A stretch of 64,000 nt of DNA from an uncultured Gemmatimonadales bacterium (GTDB lineage: Bacteria; Gemmatimonadota; Gemmatimonadetes; Gemmatimonadales; GWC2-71-9). The notes beneath the pieces were generated by a model. The model worked only from the letters and a program-made list of their open reading frames with translations. It was not told the DNA's origin and did not search any database. The DNA lies in NCBI GenBank assembly GCA_963705985.1, contig CAVPLK010000002.1, forward strand, positions 39,855 through 103,854, read 5' to 3'. This document shows, piece by piece, positions 39,439-64,000 of this stretch (the first letter of the stretch is position 1; the number at the start of each line of letters is the position of its first letter). A program made the position numbers and the translations under genes.

Positions 39439-40134
39439 ATGCGCCGCCTTGCCCCGACCGCCGCGGCGGTCGTCCTCATCCTCACCATCGCCGCCCTTCC
39501 CGCTGCCGCGCAGGGTACCGCCGCTCAGCATGACATGGCGATGATGGGCACCACCGATGTCGCCAGCAAGCACCTTACCGTCACCCCACGCCGGCCGACG
39601 CAGCCGGGCGACTCGGCTCGCGCCGACAGCATCGTGCAGGTCGCCGAAGCGGCGCTGGCCAGGTATGGGGACGTTTCGGTAGCCGAGGCGGACGGCTTCC
39701 GGATGTTCGCGCCGAAGGTCAAGAAGCAGAAGATCTATCACTACAGCCGGCGCATGAACGCCGTGAAGGCACGCTGGACGTTCGACGCCACGGCGCCAAG
39801 TGCCCTGCTGTACGAGCCGCAGGCCGATGGCACCGTACGACTCATCGGCGCGATGTACACCGCACCTCCCACATTCACACTTGACCAGCTCGATGCGCGC
39901 ATTCCCCTCAGCATTGCCCAGTGGCATCAGCACACCAGCATCTGCCTCCCGCCAGGCGCGAACGAGGAGATGGGGCTCTTCACCCGTGACCCGCGATTCG
40001 GCCCGCGGGGCAGCATCTCGACCGAGGAAGCGTGTCAGGAGGCTGGGGGCACCTTCAAGCAGCGGATGGCGGGGTGGATGGTGCACGTGAACATGTTCGA
40101 GGCGCCGGACCAGGTGTGGGAGCACAGGCACTGA
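39439..40134 (+). CDS. Hypothetical secreted protein
   Basis: The ATG at 39439 follows GGGGAG. The signal peptide is MRRLAPTAAAVVLILTIAALPAAAQG. 231 aa with high GC3 and no family I recognise. Confidence 0.6.
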   Translation: MRRLAPTAAAVVLILTIAALPAAAQGTAAQHDMAMMGTTDVASKHLTVTPRRPTQPGDSARADSIVQVAEAALARYGDVSVAEADGFRMFAPKVKKQKIYHYSRRMNAVKARWTFDATAPSALLYEPQADGTVRLIGAMYTAPPTFTLDQLDARIPLSIAQWHQHTSICLPPGANEEMGLFTRDPRFGPRGSISTEEACQEAGGTFKQRMAGWMVHVNMFEAPDQVWEHRH

Positions 40135-53983: not shown

Positions 53984-54337
53984 ATGCGCTACGTCGATGC
54001 CTATGTCATTCCCATTCCCAAGCGGAAGCTCAAGGCCTACTGGGCCATGGCGCGCGTGGGGAAGAAGACGTGGATGAAGCACGGCGCACTCGCCTACTAT
54101 GAGTGCGTCGGGGACGACCTGAAGGCGTCGTGGGGCCAGGGCTTCCCGAAGATGGCGAAGTTGAAACGCGGGGAGACGGTCGTCGTCGCCTTCGTGGTGT
54201 ACAAGTCGCGGGCCCATCGCGACCGGGTCAACGCGAAGGTGATGAAGGAGTTCGCCGCGGCAGAGGCCCCGATGGAGATGCCGTTCGACATCAAGCGGAT
54301 GGCGAACGGCGGGTTTACGGTGGTCGTGGGGACGTGA
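53984..54337 (+). CDS. DUF1428 family protein
   Basis: 117 aa: MRYVDAYVIPIPKRKLKAYW...KSRAHRDRVNAKVMKE. It is about 60-65 percent identical by eye to the paralog at 59524. Confidence 0.85.
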   Translation: MRYVDAYVIPIPKRKLKAYWAMARVGKKTWMKHGALAYYECVGDDLKASWGQGFPKMAKLKRGETVVVAFVVYKSRAHRDRVNAKVMKEFAAAEAPMEMPFDIKRMANGGFTVVVGT

Positions 54338-54925: not shown

Positions 54926-56116
54926 TCAGTTGTTCCAGTCGTCGCCCGGCATGATCCGCCGCATGAACTCGTCGAAGAGCGGCACCGTAAAGGCGGTGTC
55001 GCCGTGGGCCGGGCTGTAAATCATCCCCTTGGCAATCAGGGAACTGCGGATGGGGCCGAGCGCGGTCACTCGCCGCTCGAGGATGTCGGCGATGTCCCCC
55101 GACCGATGGGGACCCGCACCCAGTTCCGACATCGCGCGGAGGTAACGCTTTTCCGACGGGGTCAGCCGGTCGAACCGCACCCGGAAGAAGCTCTCGTCCA
55201 GCGCCGCCACCGCGGACCGGGACGCCCTGGCCACGTCGTCCGCGGTGATCGGCGACGCGTCTGCGACGTCCCAGGCATGCTTGCCCCATTCCTGCACGAA
55301 GTACGGATAGCCCCGGGTTTCCTTCGCGATGCGATCGAGCGCCTCCGGCGTCACCACCACCCCCTGCTCCAGCGCCGGCTTGGCGATCGCGCTCCTCGAG
55401 GCGGCCTCGGTGAGCGGCCCGACCTCGGGGAAATCGAACAGCCGCTCGGCGTATGACTTGGCCCGCCCCATCCGGCCGCGGAGCTGCGGCAGGCCCGCCC
55501 CGACCAGCACCACCGGGAGCCGGCGCTGCGCGGTCCGGTGCAGCGCCGTGATGAGGGCCTCGAGCTGTGTCTCGGGGACGTACTGCAGTTCATCCACAAA
55601 CATCGCCAGGGCGGTGTCCCCAGCCTGGGCGGCCTCGCCCGCCACCTCGAGAAGCGCCTGCAGGTCGTGCTCAAGGTCGCCGTTGTCGGCAAGGCCGGGT
55701 TCCGGCTCGAAATCGAAACCGACCTCGATGTCGGAAAATTTCAGCTTCAGCCCCTTGGCAAAACCAGCCAGGCCACGCAGCGCGCGCACCGCCAGGTCCC
55801 TGGCCTTGGCACTGTGCGACAGGCGCAGGAGACCCTGGCGCAGTTGCGGCGCCAGGATGGCGGGGAGCGAGCGATTTTCCGGCGCCTCCACCCGCAGGGT
55901 CTGGATGCCGGCGGCCTCGGCGTCGTCCCGCATCTGGTCGAGGAGGACGGTCTTCCCCACCCCCCGGAGCCCAACCATCAGGACGCTCTTGGTGGGCAGC
56001 CCGCGCCGCACCCGGGCGAGCGCGATCCGGACCGTCTCAAGCAGGTCATCCCGACCGGCAAGCTCGGGAGGCGGGGCTCCGGCGCCAGGAGCGAAGGGGT
56101 TGGAGACAGGATCCAT
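54926..56116 (-). CDS. AAA/STAND-like ATP-binding protein with C-terminal winged-helix region
   Basis: N-terminal NPFAPGAGAPPPELAGRDDLL, Walker A GLRGVGKTVLL, Walker B AMFVDELQYV, and a C-terminal LTPSEKRYLRAMSELG. Confidence 0.8.
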   Translation of the reverse strand: MDPVSNPFAPGAGAPPPELAGRDDLLETVRIALARVRRGLPTKSVLMVGLRGVGKTVLLDQMRDDAEAAGIQTLRVEAPENRSLPAILAPQLRQGLLRLSHSAKARDLAVRALRGLAGFAKGLKLKFSDIEVGFDFEPEPGLADNGDLEHDLQALLEVAGEAAQAGDTALAMFVDELQYVPETQLEALITALHRTAQRRLPVVLVGAGLPQLRGRMGRAKSYAERLFDFPEVGPLTEAASRSAIAKPALEQGVVVTPEALDRIAKETRGYPYFVQEWGKHAWDVADASPITADDVARASRSAVAALDESFFRVRFDRLTPSEKRYLRAMSELGAGPHRSGDIADILERRVTALGPIRSSLIAKGMIYSPAHGDTAFTVPLFDEFMRRIMPGDDWNN

Positions 56117-56240: not shown

Positions 56241-57713
56241 CTACTCGGTCACCAGCACCGGCACCATGCGGGCATCGAAGGTCGAGTCGCCGAGTTCCCC
56301 CTGGCCGTTGCTCCCCCAGCAGTAGAGCACCTGTTTCGTGGTGATGCCGCAGGTGTGGTCCCACCCCGCCCGAACCGAGGCGAACGTGTGGCCCCCCGCC
56401 ACGGCGACCGGAGTGGTCCGCGGAGTGGTGCTGCCGTCCCCAAGGGCGCCTTCCCAGTTGTCCCCCCAGCAATAGCCGGCGCCGTCCACGGTCAGACCGC
56501 AGGTGTACTCGAGCCCGGCGCTGATCCCTGAAAACCGCAGCCCGCCCGCCGCTGCGACCGGGGTCGGCCGGATGGTCGTCGACCCGTCGCCGAGCTGGCC
56601 CTTCGCGTTCCCACCCCAGCAATAGGCGGCGCCCGTCCCGGTGAGTCCGCAGGTGAAGTTGAGGCCGGCACTGATGGCGGTGAAGCTCCGCCCCCCCGCC
56701 ACCGGCACGGGAGAGGTCGCGTCGAGGCCCGAGCCGTCGCCCAGCTGCCCGACCTGGTTGTTGCCCCAGCAGTGGGCGGCGCCGGCGGCAGTCAACCCGC
56801 AGGCGTGCCAGGCACCGGCGGTCACGGCGGTGAACGTCAGCCCTCCCGTCACCGGCGTGGGCGTCGAGCGATTGGTGGTCGTTCCGTCGCCGACCTGGCC
56901 GGCGCTGTTGTCACCCCAGCAGTACGCCGCCCCGGCCGTGGTCACCGCGCAGGTCAGGTGCATGTACCCGAGGCTCACGCCGGCGAAGCTCAGCCCCCCC
57001 GCGACGGGAGTCGGCAGGGCCCGGTCGGTCGTGGTGCCGTCACCCAGCTGGCCGCTGCTGTTGTAGCCCCAGCAGTAGAGGAGGGACGCGGTGGTGAGGC
57101 CGCAGGAGTGCAGCACCCCGGTGCTGATCCGTCCGAAGGTCAGGGTGCCCGAGACGATCCGGGCGTAGGGTTGTGCCATGGCAGTACCGTTGCCGAGTTG
57201 TCCGGCGGTGTTGTCGCCCCAGCAGTAGGCGGTCCCGGCGAGGGTGAGCCCGCAGCTATGGGACATCCCGCCGGGGCTGACACCGGCCATCGCGAGGGTG
57301 ACGGCAAAGGAAGAGCTGGAGGCGATCTGGAGCTGGTCGGCGTTGGCGGCGAGGGAGTAGCCGCGCCCCCGCACGGTCATGCGCAAATCGGAAAATGTGG
57401 CGACGCCCTTCACGGCCGAGACCGTCCTGGTGCCGGCGAGGGCGGTGCCGGACCCACCCGACCAGATCGAGAGCGAGACGGGATTGGTGGCGGTCGTCAC
57501 CGTCGCGCCCGATTCGTCGAGCACGGCGACGCGGACCGCGGGCGAGATCACGGTCCCGTCGGGACCGGTGGACGGCTGGACGGTGAACGCCAGCTTGCTT
57601 GGAACCCCGGTACCGTCGGGCCCGCTGCCGCCATTTCCGTCGCTGCAGGCGAGGACGACGGCGAGAAGTCCCGGAAACAGCCGGGACAGCTGGTGAAGCG
57701 TTGGTGCACGCAT
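56241..57713 (-). CDS. RCC1-repeat (beta-propeller) lipoprotein with N-terminal Ig-like domain
   Basis: Seven CWG-x-N-x-x-GQLGDG repeats. The N-terminal unit ends in GVATFSDLRM, like the Ig-like units at 44171-46009. The signal and lipobox MRAPTLHQLSRLFPGLLAVVLAC start at ATG 57713. Confidence 0.85.
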   Translation of the reverse strand: MRAPTLHQLSRLFPGLLAVVLACSDGNGGSGPDGTGVPSKLAFTVQPSTGPDGTVISPAVRVAVLDESGATVTTATNPVSLSIWSGGSGTALAGTRTVSAVKGVATFSDLRMTVRGRGYSLAANADQLQIASSSSFAVTLAMAGVSPGGMSHSCGLTLAGTAYCWGDNTAGQLGNGTAMAQPYARIVSGTLTFGRISTGVLHSCGLTTASLLYCWGYNSSGQLGDGTTTDRALPTPVAGGLSFAGVSLGYMHLTCAVTTAGAAYCWGDNSAGQVGDGTTTNRSTPTPVTGGLTFTAVTAGAWHACGLTAAGAAHCWGNNQVGQLGDGSGLDATSPVPVAGGRSFTAISAGLNFTCGLTGTGAAYCWGGNAKGQLGDGSTTIRPTPVAAAGGLRFSGISAGLEYTCGLTVDGAGYCWGDNWEGALGDGSTTPRTTPVAVAGGHTFASVRAGWDHTCGITTKQVLYCWGSNGQGELGDSTFDARMVPVLVTE

Positions 57714-57783
57714 GATCCCTCCCTGGTCGAGTGCCGGCCGCGGTCCGCAACGGCATGGCCACACGATCGGAAGGTGGCGTCAA

Positions 57784-58675: not shown

Positions 58676-59203
58676 CTACCCGCCTGCTGGCCGTTGAAAT
58701 CCGATCTGTTTCGCTGGCTTGGCATTTTCGTGAAGGAGTGCGCGGATCGCATCAAACACAGCCCTGAACTGCTGGTCGTACCGGGCCTCCATCGCATCGA
58801 GCTTCCGGGCCAACTCGGCGTGGGTCCCCAGTGCGACCCGCAGCTTCACAAAGGCCCGAACCACCTGCACACTCGTCTCCACGGCCACCTGGCTCTTGAG
58901 CACACTGGCCAGCATCACCGCGCCGTGCTCGGTGAAGGCCATAGGCACATGTCGACGCCCGCCCCACGCCCCACTTGAGGTCGCAATTTGCGACCTCAAG
59001 TTGGCGGCTTCCTCCGGCGTCAGTTGGAACGCAAAGTCGCCCGGAAATCGCGCCCGGTTCCGCCTGACCTGCTCCTTGAGCCGCTTGGTCGTTACGCCGT
59101 AGAGTGCGGCCAGGTCGGAGTCCAGCATCACCCGGTGCCCTCGCACCTCCCGGATCAGGCTGGCTACTCCCTCGACCACCACCGGATTCTCACTCTCGGG
59201 CAT
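58676..59203 (-). CDS. ORF6N (KilA-N-related) domain DNA-binding protein
   Basis: IREVRGHRVMLDSDLAALYGVTTKRLKEQVRRNRARFPGDFAFQLT...HVPMAFTEHGAVMLASVL matches the ORF6N family pattern. Confidence 0.8.
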   Translation of the reverse strand: MPESENPVVVEGVASLIREVRGHRVMLDSDLAALYGVTTKRLKEQVRRNRARFPGDFAFQLTPEEAANLRSQIATSSGAWGGRRHVPMAFTEHGAVMLASVLKSQVAVETSVQVVRAFVKLRVALGTHAELARKLDAMEARYDQQFRAVFDAIRALLHENAKPAKQIGFQRPAGG

Positions 59204-59523: not shown

Positions 59524-59877
59524 ATGCGCTATGTCGACAGCTTTGTCCTGCCGATCCCCACCAAGAACCTCAAGAAGTACCTGGGCATGGCACGGCTGGG
59601 GAAGCGGCTGTGGATGAAGCACGGCGCGCTCGCCTACATGGAGTGCGTCGGAGACGATCTCAAGAACGCGTGGGGCGCCACCTTTCCCAAACAGATGAAG
59701 CTGAAGCCGCGCGAGTCGGTGATTGTCGCCTATATCGTGTTCAAGTCCCGGGCCCATCGCGATCGAGTCAACGCCAAGGTGATGAAGGAGCTGATGGGCG
59801 ACGGCGTCGAAATGGAGATGCCGTTCGATCCGAGGCGTGGGTTGTACGGCGGGTTCAAGGTGATCGTGGGGAGTTGA
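59524..59877 (+). CDS. DUF1428 family protein (second paralog)
   Basis: MRYVDSFVLPIPTKNLKKYL...KSRAHRDRVNAKVMKE. Confidence 0.85.
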   Translation: MRYVDSFVLPIPTKNLKKYLGMARLGKRLWMKHGALAYMECVGDDLKNAWGATFPKQMKLKPRESVIVAYIVFKSRAHRDRVNAKVMKELMGDGVEMEMPFDPRRGLYGGFKVIVGS

Positions 59878-60942: not shown

Positions 60943-61056
60943 GGCGTACGCCCATCGCGTGGGTCGTGCCCTGGGGCCCGTTTGGCTGGAATTATCGGAG
61001 GGGGAAGATTTTGCCAAAGTCCCGCAAGGCCTTGGCGCAGCCGAAGGTGAACGAAG

Positions 61057-61098
61057 TGGAGCGGAGGGGGATCGAACCCCTGACCCCCTGCTTGCAAA
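61057..61098 (-). other. 3' fragment of a tRNA-Ala(UGC) gene (anticodon loop to discriminator); putative attachment-site remnant
   Basis: The minus strand reads TTTGCAA (loop, anticodon TGC) GCAGG GGGTC AGGGG TTCGATC CCCCT CCGCTCC A. This gives a perfect T arm, a 5-nt variable loop and a 3' acceptor with U70 (Ala identity). No D arm or 5' acceptor exists upstream (CCAAC replaces CCTGC and the homology stops there). Confidence 0.7.
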
Positions 61099-61174
61099 GT
61101 TGGATCGTAAGTCATTGTCCTGCAACAACTTGTAGCACTCACGCGTCGTTCTGGGCATCGGTGTTGTGAGTCGG

Positions 61175-61199
61175 GGGCCCGAAAGGGCCCTTTTGTTGT
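61175..61199 (+). terminator. Rho-independent terminator-like hairpin
   Basis: GGGCCC gaaa GGGCCC (a perfect 6-bp GC stem) followed by TTTTGTTGT. Confidence 0.6.
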
Positions 61200-61205
61200 C
61201 CTGGA

Positions 61206-61636
61206 CACACAACAAAACACACAACAGGGGCCGATTTCGGCTGAAATCGTGGTTCGTTCGCCACATTCCATTTGCAGGCCGGAAGAAGAATTCCGCAACG
61301 ACTGCCAGTGCAGTTAACTTGTTGTCTTGTCTAGCGTTACTGGTCACTTCAGCGCCCCTCCATTTCACCCAACTCACAACAGACTCACAACGGTTACCCC
61401 CTTTGGATTTCGTAAGCAGGGGGTCGAGCTGATTCCAATAACTGAAGGCAGGGGGTCAGCGGTTTGATCTGAACTCACAACAGAAAGCCTGGTTCTCCCG
61501 CACCAACTCATGACAGAAGGGCTACTCCGCCGCCCGAACTCACAACAAATACGCAACGCTGATTCCATTTCGCCGAGGAAAGCAGGGGGTCCGAGGAAGG
61601 CAGGGGGTCGGAATGTTTGAGTTGGGCTCGCAACAG
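61206..61636 (+). repeat. Phased array of short direct repeats C(T/A)CACAACA(G/A), with companion motifs GCAGGGGGTC (x4) and GCTGATTCCA (x2)
   Basis: Direct copies start at 61206, 61218, 61372, 61383, 61473, 61506 (degenerate), 61538 and 61627 (CTCGCAACAG). Inverted copies are at 61163-61171 and 61618-61624. GCAGGGGGTC is at 61416, 61448, 61582 and 61600. GCTGATTCCA is at 61428 and 61558. The hairpin GATTTC ggct GAAATC is at 61233-61248. Confidence 0.75.
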
Positions 61637-61773: not shown

Positions 61774-62157
61774 ATGGCCCCGCGTCGCACAGTGCTATTG
61801 CTTCTTCCACTCGCGGTGCTGGCGATCGCGGCTTGTGCTTCCGGCTCCGCCATCGTTACAGGCGACACGAGGCCAGCGGTCCCTCAGGAGCAAGTGAAGA
61901 TCTATCTCGAACCACCAGACACGTTCGAGGTGATTGGCCTCGTCAGTGCATCCAGCGACGCCGGATGGACGGATCAAGGATCACTGAACTATGCGATTGC
62001 AGAGTTGAAGAAGCAGGCTGCGAAGCTTGGAGCGAATGGAGTGCTCATAGTCGCCACTGGCGAGACGACGACAGGTGTTGTTAATGGGAAGTACTATTCC
62101 ATCCCTGTCACCGCGAAGACCGTTCAAGGCAAGGCCATCTTCGTCAAAGAGCAGTAG
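61774..62157 (+). CDS. Small lipoprotein (127 aa), cassette-like ORF 1
   Basis: GGAG lies 7 nt upstream of the ATG. The signal and lipobox are MAPRRTVLLLLPLAVLAIAAC. The C-terminal part (AIAELKKQAAKLGANGVLIV) resembles the small DUF4156/YbjQ-like lipoprotein fold families; this is inference. Confidence 0.65.
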   Translation: MAPRRTVLLLLPLAVLAIAACASGSAIVTGDTRPAVPQEQVKIYLEPPDTFEVIGLVSASSDAGWTDQGSLNYAIAELKKQAAKLGANGVLIVATGETTTGVVNGKYYSIPVTAKTVQGKAIFVKEQ

Positions 62158-62225
62158 GCAGTGACGTCAAAGGTGCGGTCTTACCAGCACGTGCAGCTGC
62201 GGAGTACGCGCTGGCTCTGGCGGCC

Positions 62226-62318
62226 GCCGCACCGTAGGTTCTAACTGAGGGCGACGCGGCGGCTGCCACGCAGCGCCCTCGCAGCTGATACGCCAGTCGG
62301 TAGGCAGCTCAGTTCACA
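62226..62318 (+). repeat. attC-like GC-rich imperfect palindrome, copy 1
   Basis: GCCGCAC..AGGTTCTAACTGAGGGCGACGCGGCGGCTGCCACGCAGCGCCCTCGCAGCTGATACGCCAGTCGGTAGGCAGCTCAGTTCACA. GAGGGCG (62247-53) pairs with CGCCCTC (62274-80). It is alignable to copies 2 and 3. Confidence 0.45.
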
Positions 62319-62336
62319 TCTTCGTGCAGGCGGCCA

Positions 62337-63251
62337 GTGGACCTTTCCCAGGTGTTTCAGCTCTTCAGCCGGCGCCAAGCGCCAGCGGTCAAAGGCCTCA
62401 AGACGCTCACCGAAGAATTCCGGAATAGAGTTCTGATGAGGGTGCGCGACACATTTGGACACTCGGGATACGATCTTCACCTTTGGACGGAGGTTCATCA
62501 GAAACTCACCTACTTGGTCGGAAAGCTAAGCCTCACTGGCATTCCGGCCTCTCAAGGCCACCAGGTGGACGTGCTGCGATTCCTCGCGACCTGCTCAGAT
62601 GCCCATTTCCTAGATTTTATCGAGGCGGTGTTTCAGACTAGCGCGATCGATCGCATCACCAATACCGCCCAGCTGGCGCTGGTCCGTGATATCAACACAT
62701 TCTTCAGCATCGACGATCTACCATACGCCCTCACCGATTTCGTCTGGGTGACTGGCACATCCGTCGTCCACGGCTCTACCCACACGGTGATGACCCGGAC
62801 CGCCATTCCGCAGGTTCTCTTGAAGGAGTCTGGCTCCATTCACGAGACCATCGTCAAACCGGTACTTGAACTGATCGCCGACCCGCGCTTCAGTGTCGTG
62901 AACACCGAGTACAGGGAGGCGTTGCAGGACTATCGCAAATTGGACTATGGGGATTGCCTTACCAAGTGCGGGAGTGCCTTCGAGAGCACACTCAAGGTGA
63001 TCTGCAGCGCCAATAGGTGGCCCTTTTCACCAAACGACACTGCTGCGCCACTGCTCAAGACAGTTGTCTCGAGGTCAAGCCTCGATGGGTATTTTGAACA
63101 GCCGTTAATGTTGATCGCAACGGTCCGGAACCGCTTGAGCAAGTCTCACGGCGGTGGGACCGTCCCTCGGGAGGCAGAAAAGCACGTCGCTGAATGGGCC
63201 ATGAACGCAACGGGTGCTGCCATCCTATTGCTGGTCCAAGAATGTTTGTAA
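62337..63251 (+). CDS. AbiJ-like abortive-infection protein (AbiJ N-terminal domain + C-terminal HEPN-type RNase domain)
   Basis: The N-terminus VFQLFSRRQ...LTEEFRNRVLMRVRDTF matches the AbiJ N-terminal pattern (FS-x-R ... LRNRLW). The C-terminus has the HEPN R-x4-6-H signature in ATVRNRLSKSHGGG, preceded by a conserved acidic helix (GSAFESTLKVI). Confidence 0.6.
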   Translation: MDLSQVFQLFSRRQAPAVKGLKTLTEEFRNRVLMRVRDTFGHSGYDLHLWTEVHQKLTYLVGKLSLTGIPASQGHQVDVLRFLATCSDAHFLDFIEAVFQTSAIDRITNTAQLALVRDINTFFSIDDLPYALTDFVWVTGTSVVHGSTHTVMTRTAIPQVLLKESGSIHETIVKPVLELIADPRFSVVNTEYREALQDYRKLDYGDCLTKCGSAFESTLKVICSANRWPFSPNDTAAPLLKTVVSRSSLDGYFEQPLMLIATVRNRLSKSHGGGTVPREAEKHVAEWAMNATGAAILLLVQECL

Positions 63252-63265
63252 TCGCTAATGGAGCC

Positions 63266-63352
63266 GCCGAACCAGCGCATGCAGGTGACGAGGGCGCATG
63301 TCTTGCGGCCGCGCCGCCGGCGCCCTCGCCGCTGATGCGCGTTTCGTTAGGC
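63266..63352 (+). repeat. attC-like GC-rich imperfect palindrome, copy 2 (best preserved, 87 bp)
   Basis: It begins GCCGAAC (63266-72; compare R'' RYYYAAC) and ends GTTAGGC (63346-52; R' GTTRRRY); these are complementary at 6 of 7 positions. The arms CAGCGCATGCAGGTGACGAGGGCG and CGCCCTCGCCGCTGATGCGCG pair with bulges. Confidence 0.5.
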
Positions 63353-63395
63353 CGCCCGCGTCAGATGTAATTTCATCTCGCCATTGGGAACCCGA

Positions 63396-63917
63396 ATGCC
63401 CAGGAAACATGCGTTATCGCAATACCACTGTGGCGTGGCGGCGGAAGCGTTTGCAGCCGGCTTGCTGGCGCGGTGCGGCTGCGACGTACTGGTGCAATAC
63501 GGCGCCAATCAGCCCGAATACGACCTCGTGGCAAAGCGTGCACAGCAGGCTCTATGGATCTCGGTAAAGGGTAGCCAGGACGGCGGCTGGGGCTTAACCC
63601 AGTCGTTCAAGAAACCAGGCGTGTCGTACGCTGAGGCCGCCAAGGCGTGGGCTGCGAAGCATGATCCGCGAATCATTATGTGCTTTGTGCAGTTCAAAGA
63701 CGTGGCAATCGACGCATGTCCCGAAGTCTATCTGGCACCAATCGGGGACGTAGCGAAGCAGATGGTCAAAGCGCGGAACGGCCTCGGAGATACCACGATC
63801 CAGACATTCCACACTTGGGCCACTGGCCAATGTGCAGGTTGGACTGACGCGATCCCTTCCTCCTGGAGTTTCTCTGCCAAACGGCTTGATCAGATGTTTG
63901 AATGGGCGGCGGCCTAG
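63396..63917 (+). CDS. PD-(D/E)xK nuclease-fold protein (hypothetical)
   Basis: The order of elements is AAEAFAAGLL (helix with Glu), EYDLVA (Asp strand), then WISVKGS (S-x-K strand). This is the classic restriction-endonuclease-like core. The start is ATG 63396 (TTG 63384 is possible). Confidence 0.5.
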   Translation: MPRKHALSQYHCGVAAEAFAAGLLARCGCDVLVQYGANQPEYDLVAKRAQQALWISVKGSQDGGWGLTQSFKKPGVSYAEAAKAWAAKHDPRIIMCFVQFKDVAIDACPEVYLAPIGDVAKQMVKARNGLGDTTIQTFHTWATGQCAGWTDAIPSSWSFSAKRLDQMFEWAAA

Positions 63918-63940
63918 CCAGCGCATACCGCTGGCAAGGG

Positions 63941-64000
63941 CGCGCTGGCTTGGGCGGACGCCACGCCTTAGGTTGTGAACTGAGGATGCCGCGGCGGCTG
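63941..64000 (+). repeat. attC-like element, copy 3 (left arm only; truncated by the window end)
   Basis: GCGCTGGCTTGGGCGGACGCCACGCCTTAGGTTGTGAACTGAGGATGCCGCGGCGGCTG aligns base-for-base with the left arm of copy 1. TGTGAAC (63974-80) is the exact reverse complement of GTTCACA at 62312-18. Confidence 0.45.

Follow-up and report, generated by a model that had tools for sequence, protein, structure and literature searches.

Neighbouring genes for an AbiJ-like HEPN protein and a PD-(D/E)xK-fold protein in a Gemmatimonadales genome are probably separate single-gene integron cassettes

The window, that is, the whole stretch of 64,000 nucleotides that was analysed (positions 39,855 to 103,854 of contig CAVPLK010000002.1 from an uncultured Gemmatimonadales bacterium), ends in a low-GC island. 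The GC content is 0.56–0.60 beyond position ~61000 and 0.69 in the remaining window. The left edge of the island, where the GC content falls, is marked by a tRNA/tmRNA-type fragment; an intact tRNA is not found by ARAGORN. Inside the island lie three co-oriented open reading frames (Table 1), which code for a predicted lipoprotein, an AbiJ-like protein (ORF-A), and a small PD-(D/E)xK-fold protein (ORF-B). The 3' end of each is followed by one copy of a repeat (IG1, IG2, and IG3, respectively), and the repeats share the orientation of the ORFs. ORF-A and ORF-B are carried by the same strand and are alike in GC content (0.56–0.59). No sigma-70-type promoter is found in the island, the sigma-70 pattern being uninformative for this host. 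For ORF-B, we use the ATG start of the public gene call; an alternative TTG start at 63384 gives a 177-aa protein (63384–63917) that begins 132 nt after ORF-A. The same three-gene order, with identical proteins, is present on one other short public contig, which is probably from the same strain.

Table 1 Features of the low-GC island at the end of the window
Feature	Position	Strand	Description
tRNA/tmRNA-type 3' fragment (T-arm and acceptor 3' strand)	61054–61088	−	Rfam tmRNA/tRNA clan, 17 bits, E 4.5e-4
Cassette 1 ORF	61774–62157	+	127-aa predicted lipoprotein; signal peptide and lipobox IAAC; family matches weak
attC IG1, long form, degenerate	62178–62305	+	R'' GTCTTAC (consensus RYYYAAC), R' GGTAGGC (consensus GTTRRRY); model R1 18.2 bits, E 0.005
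ORF-A cassette leader	62308–62335	+	Inverted copy (22/29 positions) of attC-internal segment 62222–62249; contains GTTCACA
Cassette 2 ORF-A	62337–63251	+	GTG start, 304 aa, AbiJ-like
attC IG2, short form, canonical	63266–63352	+	R'' GCCGAAC, R' GTTAGGC; model R1 52 bits, E 4e-12
Cassette 3 ORF-B	63396–63917	+	ATG start, 173 aa, 144 nt after ORF-A
attC IG3, long form, 5' part (site cut by window end)	63912–64000	+	R'' GCCTAGC; nhmmer E 1e-25

ORF-A consists of an AbiJ_NTD4-type N-terminal domain (approximately residues 1–180) and a C-terminal HEPN domain (approximately residues 185–304). It contains the motifs FSRR, EEFRNRVLMRV, and VRNRLSKSHGGG, and its R-x6-H motif corresponds to R264 and H271. 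Residues F10, S11, R13, R264, N265, and H271 are invariant among 29 family sequences. Pfam DUF7014 is the only model whose curated threshold is passed by ORF-A (42.2 bits; cut-off 27). The thresholds of AbiJ_NTD4 (23 bits; cut-off 34), Abi_C (15.3 bits; cut-off 24), the PADLOC AbiJ model (E 0.023), and NCBIfam STM4504/CBY_0614 (103.7 bits, E 1e-29; cut-off 150) are not reached. In the family as a whole, DUF7014 matches 29/29 sequences, Abi_C 27/29, and AbiJ_NTD4 26/29 (E ≤ 0.01 for the latter two), while the PADLOC models AbiJ and PDC-S32 match 23/29 (best E 4.9e-7) and 13/29 relatives, respectively. The AF2 model (pLDDT 87) retrieves the HEPN structures 3o10, 1ufb, 1o3u, and 1wol in Foldseek with a probability of 1.0 and target-normalised TM-scores of 0.62–0.74. 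Judged from these profiles and the fold, ORF-A is an AbiJ-family protein, part of a large AbiJ-like family; the NCBI threshold makes it a relative of STM4504/CBY_0614 rather than a member. The N-terminal domain would hold the HEPN RNase latent until infection is sensed; the HEPN dimer would then cut cellular or phage RNA, leading to growth arrest, that is, abortive infection.

ORF-B contains the motifs AAEAF, EYDLVA, and WISVKGS, and E17, D43, S56, and K58 are invariant in its family. The AF2 model (pLDDT 93.4) has the element order H-E-E-E-E-H-E-E-H, and its top PDB and viral matches are all PD-(D/E)xK nucleases. Foldseek matches in the PDB include Hjc, I-Ssp6803I, the SPARDA nuclease domain, RecU, and DpnI, and the matches among viral structures are PD-(D/E)xK proteins and resolvases. 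A profile match to the UPF0102 structure 3fov (E 0.002) aligns S56-V-K58 with E-V-K of 3fov, placing Ser at the position of the second acidic residue. PDDEXK_5 matches 29/30 relatives weakly and ORF-B itself with 13.8 bits (cut-off 26.1), and the NCBIfam YraN models score 13–19 bits (cut-offs 81–124). No PADLOC model matches ORF-B, and no gathering threshold of Pfam is reached. Relatives are abundant in metagenomes (2687 matches at E ≤ 0.001). We are confident that ORF-B, as modelled, is a small Hjc/YraN-like PD-(D/E)xK-fold protein. Since Ser takes the place of the canonical Asp/Glu, its catalytic activity is putative. We infer that it would be a metal-dependent DNA endonuclease and a stand-alone defence or conflict effector.

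The initial annotation had described an AbiJ-like protein with a HEPN C-terminus, next to a nuclease-fold protein with the order Glu, Asp, S-x-K, and had placed both genes in a low-GC island, in a cassette context beside a tRNA remnant. The profile and structure matches and the invariant residues of both proteins bear out the first part, and the GC drop, the tRNA/tmRNA-type fragment, and the attC repeats described below bear out the second.

The three repeats are mutually homologous, with no further copy in the 64 kb. IG3 and IG1 share 73% identity over 66 nt, and the repeats align at both conserved ends with the 16-site cassette array of another locus (L075). A covariance model (R1), which was trained on 22 attC sites from elsewhere and includes no sequence of the window, matches the window only at IG2 and IG1, in both cases in gene orientation. 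The inverse core sites RYYYAAC and GTTRRRY are present in IG2, which is an imperfect hairpin with one extra base in L'' (CAT[G]CAG vs CTGATG). IG1 and IG3 depart from them, so that two of the three sites carry core-triplet substitutions (TAC and GGT in IG1, AGC in IG3); in the model alignment, the R'' and R' substitutions of IG1 are not compensatory. With such core triplets, the cassettes may no longer be individually mobile. The stop codon of ORF-B lies inside or overlaps the R'' of IG3. The fold z-scores of the attC sites are weak (−0.6 to −2.1). IG2 is also recovered by the relaxed version of a heuristic attC scan, which has a background of ~0.03 sites per kb and was later replaced by the covariance model; it is missed by a stricter scan, in which the minimum-energy fold must pair R'' with R'.

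IG1 follows the lipoprotein ORF, which counts as cassette 1. IG2 is sited between ORF-A and ORF-B and forms the boundary of their cassettes, indicating that each gene is a separate single-gene cassette. No IntI homologue is found in the 64-kb window by tblastn with an IntI1 query, which clearly matches three other loci (L020, L023, and L035). No intI or attI is found in the 61 kb that precede the array on its 5' side, and the window ends inside the array. Therefore, the array looks like a CALIN (cluster of attC sites lacking an integrase) or like one that has been separated from its integrase.

The motifs GTTCACA (62312–62318) and TGTGAAC (63974–63980) had been taken as the complementary ends of a single mobile unit that carries both genes. 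A complement of this length is at chance level, with at least 7 nt in 1049 of 2000 shuffles. It extends to 11 nt (CTCAGTTCACA at 62308–62318 and TGTGAACTGAG at 63974–63984), a length above chance (3 of 5000 shuffles). However, TGTGAACTGAG is located in the central variable arm of IG3, and the same segment is present in the upstream IG1, whereas GTTCACA belongs to the ORF-A leader, which is an inverted attC segment (shuffle tests, 20/2000 against IG1 and 2/2000 against IG3). The motifs are thus parts of attC-derived sequence and not unit ends. An inner attC around a two-gene cassette, with TTCTAAC or TGTGAAC paired with GTTCACA, was also considered and rejected: the segment does not have the R/L-box hairpin fold, the motif sits in the variable arm, and an inverted copy of that arm accounts better for the leader.

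Two sets of loci, both samples from pattern-seeded searches and not exhaustive, show how the two families occur elsewhere. No ORF-B relative is detected within 10 kb on either side at any of 71 genomic loci with an ORF-A relative (120 ORF-B-family queries, all 120 of which match the window as a positive control), and no ORF-A relative is detected at any of 80 metagenomic loci with an ORF-B relative (524 kb in total; 120 ORF-A-family queries). Among the loci are large arrays, with 24 or more sites in L002 and 16 in L075. As a cassette, either family is found without the other: ORF-A at no fewer than 12 of 72 loci and ORF-B at no fewer than 8 of 83. Matches to attC bracket ORF-A relatives in L002, L012, L015, L020, L022, L023, L026, L027, L029, L035, L057, and L065, and ORF-B relatives in L072, L073, L075, L082, L110, L112, L136, and L151; IntI homologues adjoin the ORF-A relatives in L020, L023, and L035. 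Operons for type I restriction–modification (R-M) likewise contain one family without the other, ORF-A at ~11 of 71 loci and ORF-B at ~10 of 80, and the neighbouring HsdR, HsdM, and HsdS are confirmed with Pfam. Separate recruitment to integron arrays and to type I R-M operons indicates that the two families are alternative stand-alone modules, not partners.

Taken together, ORF-A and ORF-B are most likely separate single-gene integron cassettes, that is, independent cargo made neighbours by chance of the array (probability roughly 0.85). The region from 61.8 to 64.0 kb would be the start of an integron-type cassette array, set in a low-GC island by a tRNA-type att fragment, and the array would comprise three single-gene cassettes (small lipoprotein, ORF-A, and ORF-B), each closed by its own attC. 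Both genes are thus best seen as common cassette cargo; they do not make up a new two-gene defence system. The initial annotation had proposed such a system, in which a HEPN RNase and a DNA nuclease cooperate and move as a single unit bounded by TGTGAAC and GTTCACA. We regard this as very improbable. The genes are indeed adjacent, on the same strand, and alike in GC content, their order is repeated on the second short contig, and the 11-nt complement between the leader of ORF-A and the site 3' of ORF-B is improbable by chance. In addition, the core triplets of the outer IG1 and IG3 are damaged and those of the inner IG2 are intact, and the two genes may thus now move or stay together. However, a canonical attC separates ORF-A from ORF-B, the complement targets an attC-internal segment that the upstream IG1 has too, and either family is solitary as a cassette and in R-M operons. 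The absence of a conserved gene neighbourhood, which the initial annotation had named as refuting its module, is what the two sets of loci show even in their large arrays and with a working control; the proposed module is thus not upheld.

It is likewise very improbable that the repeats belong to a genomic island as generic palindromes or terminators and the three genes form an ordinary operon. A window that has no integrase or attI, the AAC/GTT core that is missing from IG1 and IG3, and the weak fold z-scores are in line with this explanation. Against it stand the boxes of IG2 (GCCGAAC and GTTAGGC) and its score with a model from attC arrays of other organisms, the end-to-end alignment of the repeats with bona fide arrays, their restriction to the 3' side of each ORF in ORF orientation, and the occurrence of relatives of both genes as cassettes beside IntI elsewhere. 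The genes could also be separate cassettes that do not act against phages: toxins, stress or dormancy effectors with a stabilising effect on the array, or accessories of repair and recombination, with ORF-B as a resolvase. A function as stress RNases has been suggested for HEPN cassettes of integrons (PMC3710099), Holliday-junction resolvases are the closest folds to ORF-B, and ORF-B is without a PADLOC match. However, both families recur in type I R-M operons, ORF-A relatives match PADLOC AbiJ and PDC-S32, and an AbiJ-like cassette is validated as anti-phage (10.1101/2024.07.02.601686). We consider a role other than defence unlikely.

ORF-A resembles the AbiJ family (Lactococcus Abi-859/AbiJ; NTD4 type CBY_0614) in its α+β N-terminal domain followed by a C-terminal HEPN domain, in the conserved R-x4-6-H, in being a single-gene system, and in its occurrence in R-M operons and mobile elements. 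It differs in falling below the curated cut-offs of the family models, DUF7014 excepted, and in sharing only ~50% identity with its closest named relatives. CBY_0614 typifies AbiJ-NTD4, and AbiJ solos are found in R-M operons (Anantharaman et al. 2013, PMC3710099). Taranis, an AbiJ-like cassette of the Vibrio cholerae chromosomal integron, confers phage resistance (bioRxiv 10.1101/2024.07.02.601686). Compared by architecture, Taranis and ORF-A are both single-gene integron cassettes that combine Abi_C/HEPN with an AbiJ-type N-terminal domain; the N-terminus is NTD5-like in Taranis and NTD4 in ORF-A, and the hosts and the attC families differ. The array itself is like integron arrays and CALINs in that one promoterless ORF per unit is followed by an attC, units are co-oriented, attC sites are alike within the array, the stop codon lies in R'', and the cargo is low in GC. 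It is unlike integron arrays in having neither intI nor attI within 61 kb upstream, in the core-triplet substitutions of two of its three attC sites, and in abutting a tRNA-type att fragment.

ORF-B is comparable to YraN/UPF0102 and archaeal Hjc (the PDDEXK_5 neighbourhood) in size, in the α-β-β-β-α-β core, and in the order of the helix Glu, the strand Asp, and the x-K strand. However, it has Ser for the acidic residue of (D/E)xK and an extra C-terminal subdomain of ~60 residues, it scores far under the family cut-offs, and its family is found in cassettes and hsdR-hsdM operons, not in housekeeping loci. PrrC, the latent ABC-ATPase–HEPN anticodon nuclease of the EcoprrI type I R-M locus, offers an analogy only: its gene lies within a type I R-M operon, as do the R-M-embedded relatives of both families, whereas the window copies of ORF-A and ORF-B are outside any R-M operon. 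By this analogy, the R-M-embedded relatives of ORF-B could serve as a second-line nuclease, as PrrC guards EcoprrI.

A tempting false positive is thereby discarded: each attC site bounds a unit, and adjacency in an integron array does not show that two genes function as a pair. The array is a further environmental case, in a high-GC host, of integron cassettes that store defence-type genes. Both families move between cassette arrays and type I R-M operons, in agreement with the published view that defence islands are a source of systems for integrons. Taranis already validates AbiJ-like cassettes as active against phages, and the only discovery potential here lies in the uncharacterised ORF-B family. 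Tentatively, this family may represent an undescribed stand-alone conflict effector of ~170 aa with an unusual Glu/Asp/Ser-x-Lys site, repeatedly taken up both by integrons, as a cassette, and by type I R-M operons, as an insert that overlaps the hsdR end.

An attC site lies between ORF-A, the AbiJ-like gene, and ORF-B, the small gene downstream, and one follows each gene; each is therefore a separate single-gene cassette. The regions after the lipoprotein gene (IG1), ORF-A (IG2), and ORF-B (IG3) are mutually homologous, and the 64-kb window contains no further copy. The integron boxes of IG2 are canonical (GCCGAAC for R'' and GTTAGGC for R') and enclose an imperfect hairpin. All three regions can be aligned, at their two conserved ends, to the attC sites of a 16-cassette array on a metagenomic contig (L075), the boxes of which are GCCTAAC and GTTAGGC. 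A covariance model of 22 attC sites, all taken from other loci, finds exactly two matches in the window, both on the + strand; IG3 is incomplete, cut by the window end. IG1 (GTCTTAC/GGTAGGC) and IG3 (GCCTAGC) are probably decayed copies, because their core triplets are substituted.

Coordinates of the principal features in the window
Feature	Position	Strand	Remarks
AAA_16/STAND-like ATPase	54926-56116	-	adjoins RCC1-repeat gene
RCC1-repeat (beta-propeller) protein	56241-57764	-	507 aa
ORF6N-domain protein	58676-59203	-	KilAC/Rha-type phage regulatory DNA-binding domain; just outside low-GC island
tRNA/tmRNA-type 3' fragment	61054-61088	-	adjoins GC drop
IG1, attC model match	62178-62305	+	18.2 bits, E 0.005
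ORF-A	62337-63251	+	GTG start, 304 aa
IG2, attC model match	63266-63352	+	52 bits, E 4e-12
ORF-B	63384-63917 or 63396-63917	+	TTG or ATG start, respectively

A tblastn search of the window with an IntI1 query finds no IntI homologue, although this query recovers IntI from three related loci. So far as the window shows, the array is an attC cluster that lacks an integrase. Gene cassettes are normally promoterless. Neither a promoter nor an integrase-side Pc promoter can be seen, a sigma-70-type search of the island being uninformative for this host, and expression of the cassette genes is uncertain. The first cassette (61774-62157) encodes a 127-aa predicted lipoprotein with weak matches to DUF4156, YdgH/BhsA-like proteins, and the Leptospira LA_1841 salt-regulated family.

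The initial annotation had proposed ORF-A and ORF-B as a novel two-gene defence module, but the two families do not co-occur in the loci sampled elsewhere. In samples seeded by pattern searches and not exhaustive, tblastn with 120 ORF-B-family proteins finds nothing at E ≤ 0.001 in 71 loci with ORF-A relatives (many phyla, ±10 kb, from a scan of GTDB species genomes), and 120 ORF-A-family proteins find nothing in 80 loci with ORF-B relatives (metagenome scan). As a positive control, 120/120 ORF-B-family queries match the window. The lack of co-occurrence extends to large co-oriented arrays, namely CAVYWA010000014.1 (L002; at least 24 attC matches in 20 kb) and WNGN01003762.1 (L075; 16 in 10 kb). 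The two families act as alternatives to each other at shared hotspots. Each also occurs singly as a one-gene cassette: attC matches bracket ORF-A relatives in at least 12 of 72 loci and ORF-B relatives in at least 8 of 83, and IntI adjoins ORF-A relatives in three loci (L020, L023, and L035). In type I R-M operons, with neighbours checked by Pfam, ORF-A relatives without ORF-B lie between hsdR and hsdS/hsdM (~11/71 loci), and ORF-B relatives without ORF-A lie directly after hsdR, overlapping its 3' end by ~10 nt, and before hsdM (~10/80 loci).

The R-M operons holding either family are EcoEI-type (L010, L133, L145, and ~20 other loci); in L010, the ORF-A relative is preceded by a short ORF that looks Fic/Doc-like by eye. 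In the region 4464-6933 of L152, the closest ORF-A relative (59% identity) starts 49 nt past a 204-aa gene, with a SLFN_AlbA_2 protein and an rve transposase nearby. The attC scan detects no attC in this locus, and the relative could occupy a different, operonic context.

Defence genes in integron cassettes, AbiJ-like ones included, are already published, and that literature treats genes as a single system only if they share the same cassette. Therefore, the pairing is not supported, and the cassette type is already known.

The complementary sequences GTTCACA (62312-62318) and TGTGAAC (63974-63980), previously taken as the ends of a single mobile unit, are part of an 11-nt complement, a length unlikely by chance. 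They are not ends: TGTGAAC belongs to an attC-internal segment in the variable central arm of IG3, away from any boundary. The IG1 counterpart of this segment (62222-62249), corresponding to the central arm's left half in long-form attC sites, recurs in inverted form (22/29 positions) as the ORF-A leader (62308-62335). The complement therefore reflects repeated attC-derived sequence rather than the termini of a two-gene unit. By pairing with the upstream attC, the leader could create an alternative hairpin and occlude the ORF-A start region.

The array was correctly placed in a low-GC island beside a tRNA att remnant: GC drops from 0.69 to 0.56-0.60 at ~61 kb, at the tRNA-type fragment. GCAGGGGGTC, with 0.5 copies expected in the window, occurs four times on the + strand in 61350-61620 (61416, 61448, 61582, and 61600) and once on the - strand inside the fragment (61082-61091). 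By eye, 61448-61475 resembles a longer, decayed version of the tRNA 3' region in opposite orientation. Integrative elements may have left all of these as serial att remnants. The 670-nt non-coding stretch from the fragment to the first cassette also holds five copies of CTCACAAC (within 61163-61591) and two 58-nt direct repeats of 71% identity (61368-61425 and 61534-61591); no attI or integrase is recognised in it. Elsewhere, seven 150-nt tandem repeats (56286-57287) are explained by the RCC1-repeat protein, and two DUF1428 paralogues (53984-54337 and 59524-59877) lie 5.5 kb apart with 74-76% DNA identity.

The domain assignments hold for both proteins, and the peptide motifs quoted for them are present on invariant columns. 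In ORF-A, these columns are F10, S11, R13, R264, N265, H271, and G272 (29 relatives, 44-59% identity). Conservation of the N-terminus (F7, F10, S11, and R13) supports the GTG start; therefore, the 271-aa public annotation (P0001), which begins 33 codons too late and omits 62337-62435, is truncated. ORF-A scores above the Pfam DUF7014 threshold, with sub-threshold matches to AbiJ_NTD4 and Abi_C and a match to NCBIfam STM4504/CBY_0614 under the cut-off (1e-29). Across the family, DUF7014 matches 29/29 members, Abi_C 27/29, and AbiJ_NTD4 26/29; the PADLOC AbiJ model matches 23/29 and the candidate PDC-S32 13/29. In the AlphaFold model (pLDDT 87), the C-terminal domain is helical and matches HEPN structures at probability 1.0 in Foldseek. 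The architecture was already described, since the HEPN survey of Anantharaman et al. (PMC3710099) uses CBY_0614 to typify AbiJ-NTD4. By analogy with the AbiJ family and with Taranis, a validated AbiJ-like cassette (bioRxiv 10.1101/2024.07.02.601686), ORF-A would be a latent HEPN RNase, freed by its N-terminal sensor domain upon infection to cause growth arrest.

For ORF-B, the ATG start is the choice of the public gene call and agrees with most relatives. The invariant columns are H11, E17, D43, S56, K58, and Q99 (30 relatives). No family scores over threshold (PDDEXK_5 and YraN matches are weak), and no PADLOC model matches. The predicted structure is confident (pLDDT 93.4), and its top structural matches are all PD-(D/E)xK nucleases: Hjc, I-Ssp6803I, the SPARDA nuclease domain, RecU/PrfA, DpnI, and viral resolvases. 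In a profile search of solved structures, ORF-B matches the UPF0102/YraN structure 3fov (E 0.002), with E17, D43, and S56-x-K58 aligned on the YraN Glu, Asp, and E-x-K; the active site is non-canonical in that Ser replaces Glu. We infer that ORF-B would be a small metal-dependent DNase working alone; a toxin or stress role and a resolvase-type role are the alternatives. What the analysis shows is the cassette structure, both domain architectures, conservation of the predicted catalytic residues, that the two families are independent of each other, and that they occur in defence-type contexts. The uncharacterised ORF-B family is the sole part that deserves an experiment.
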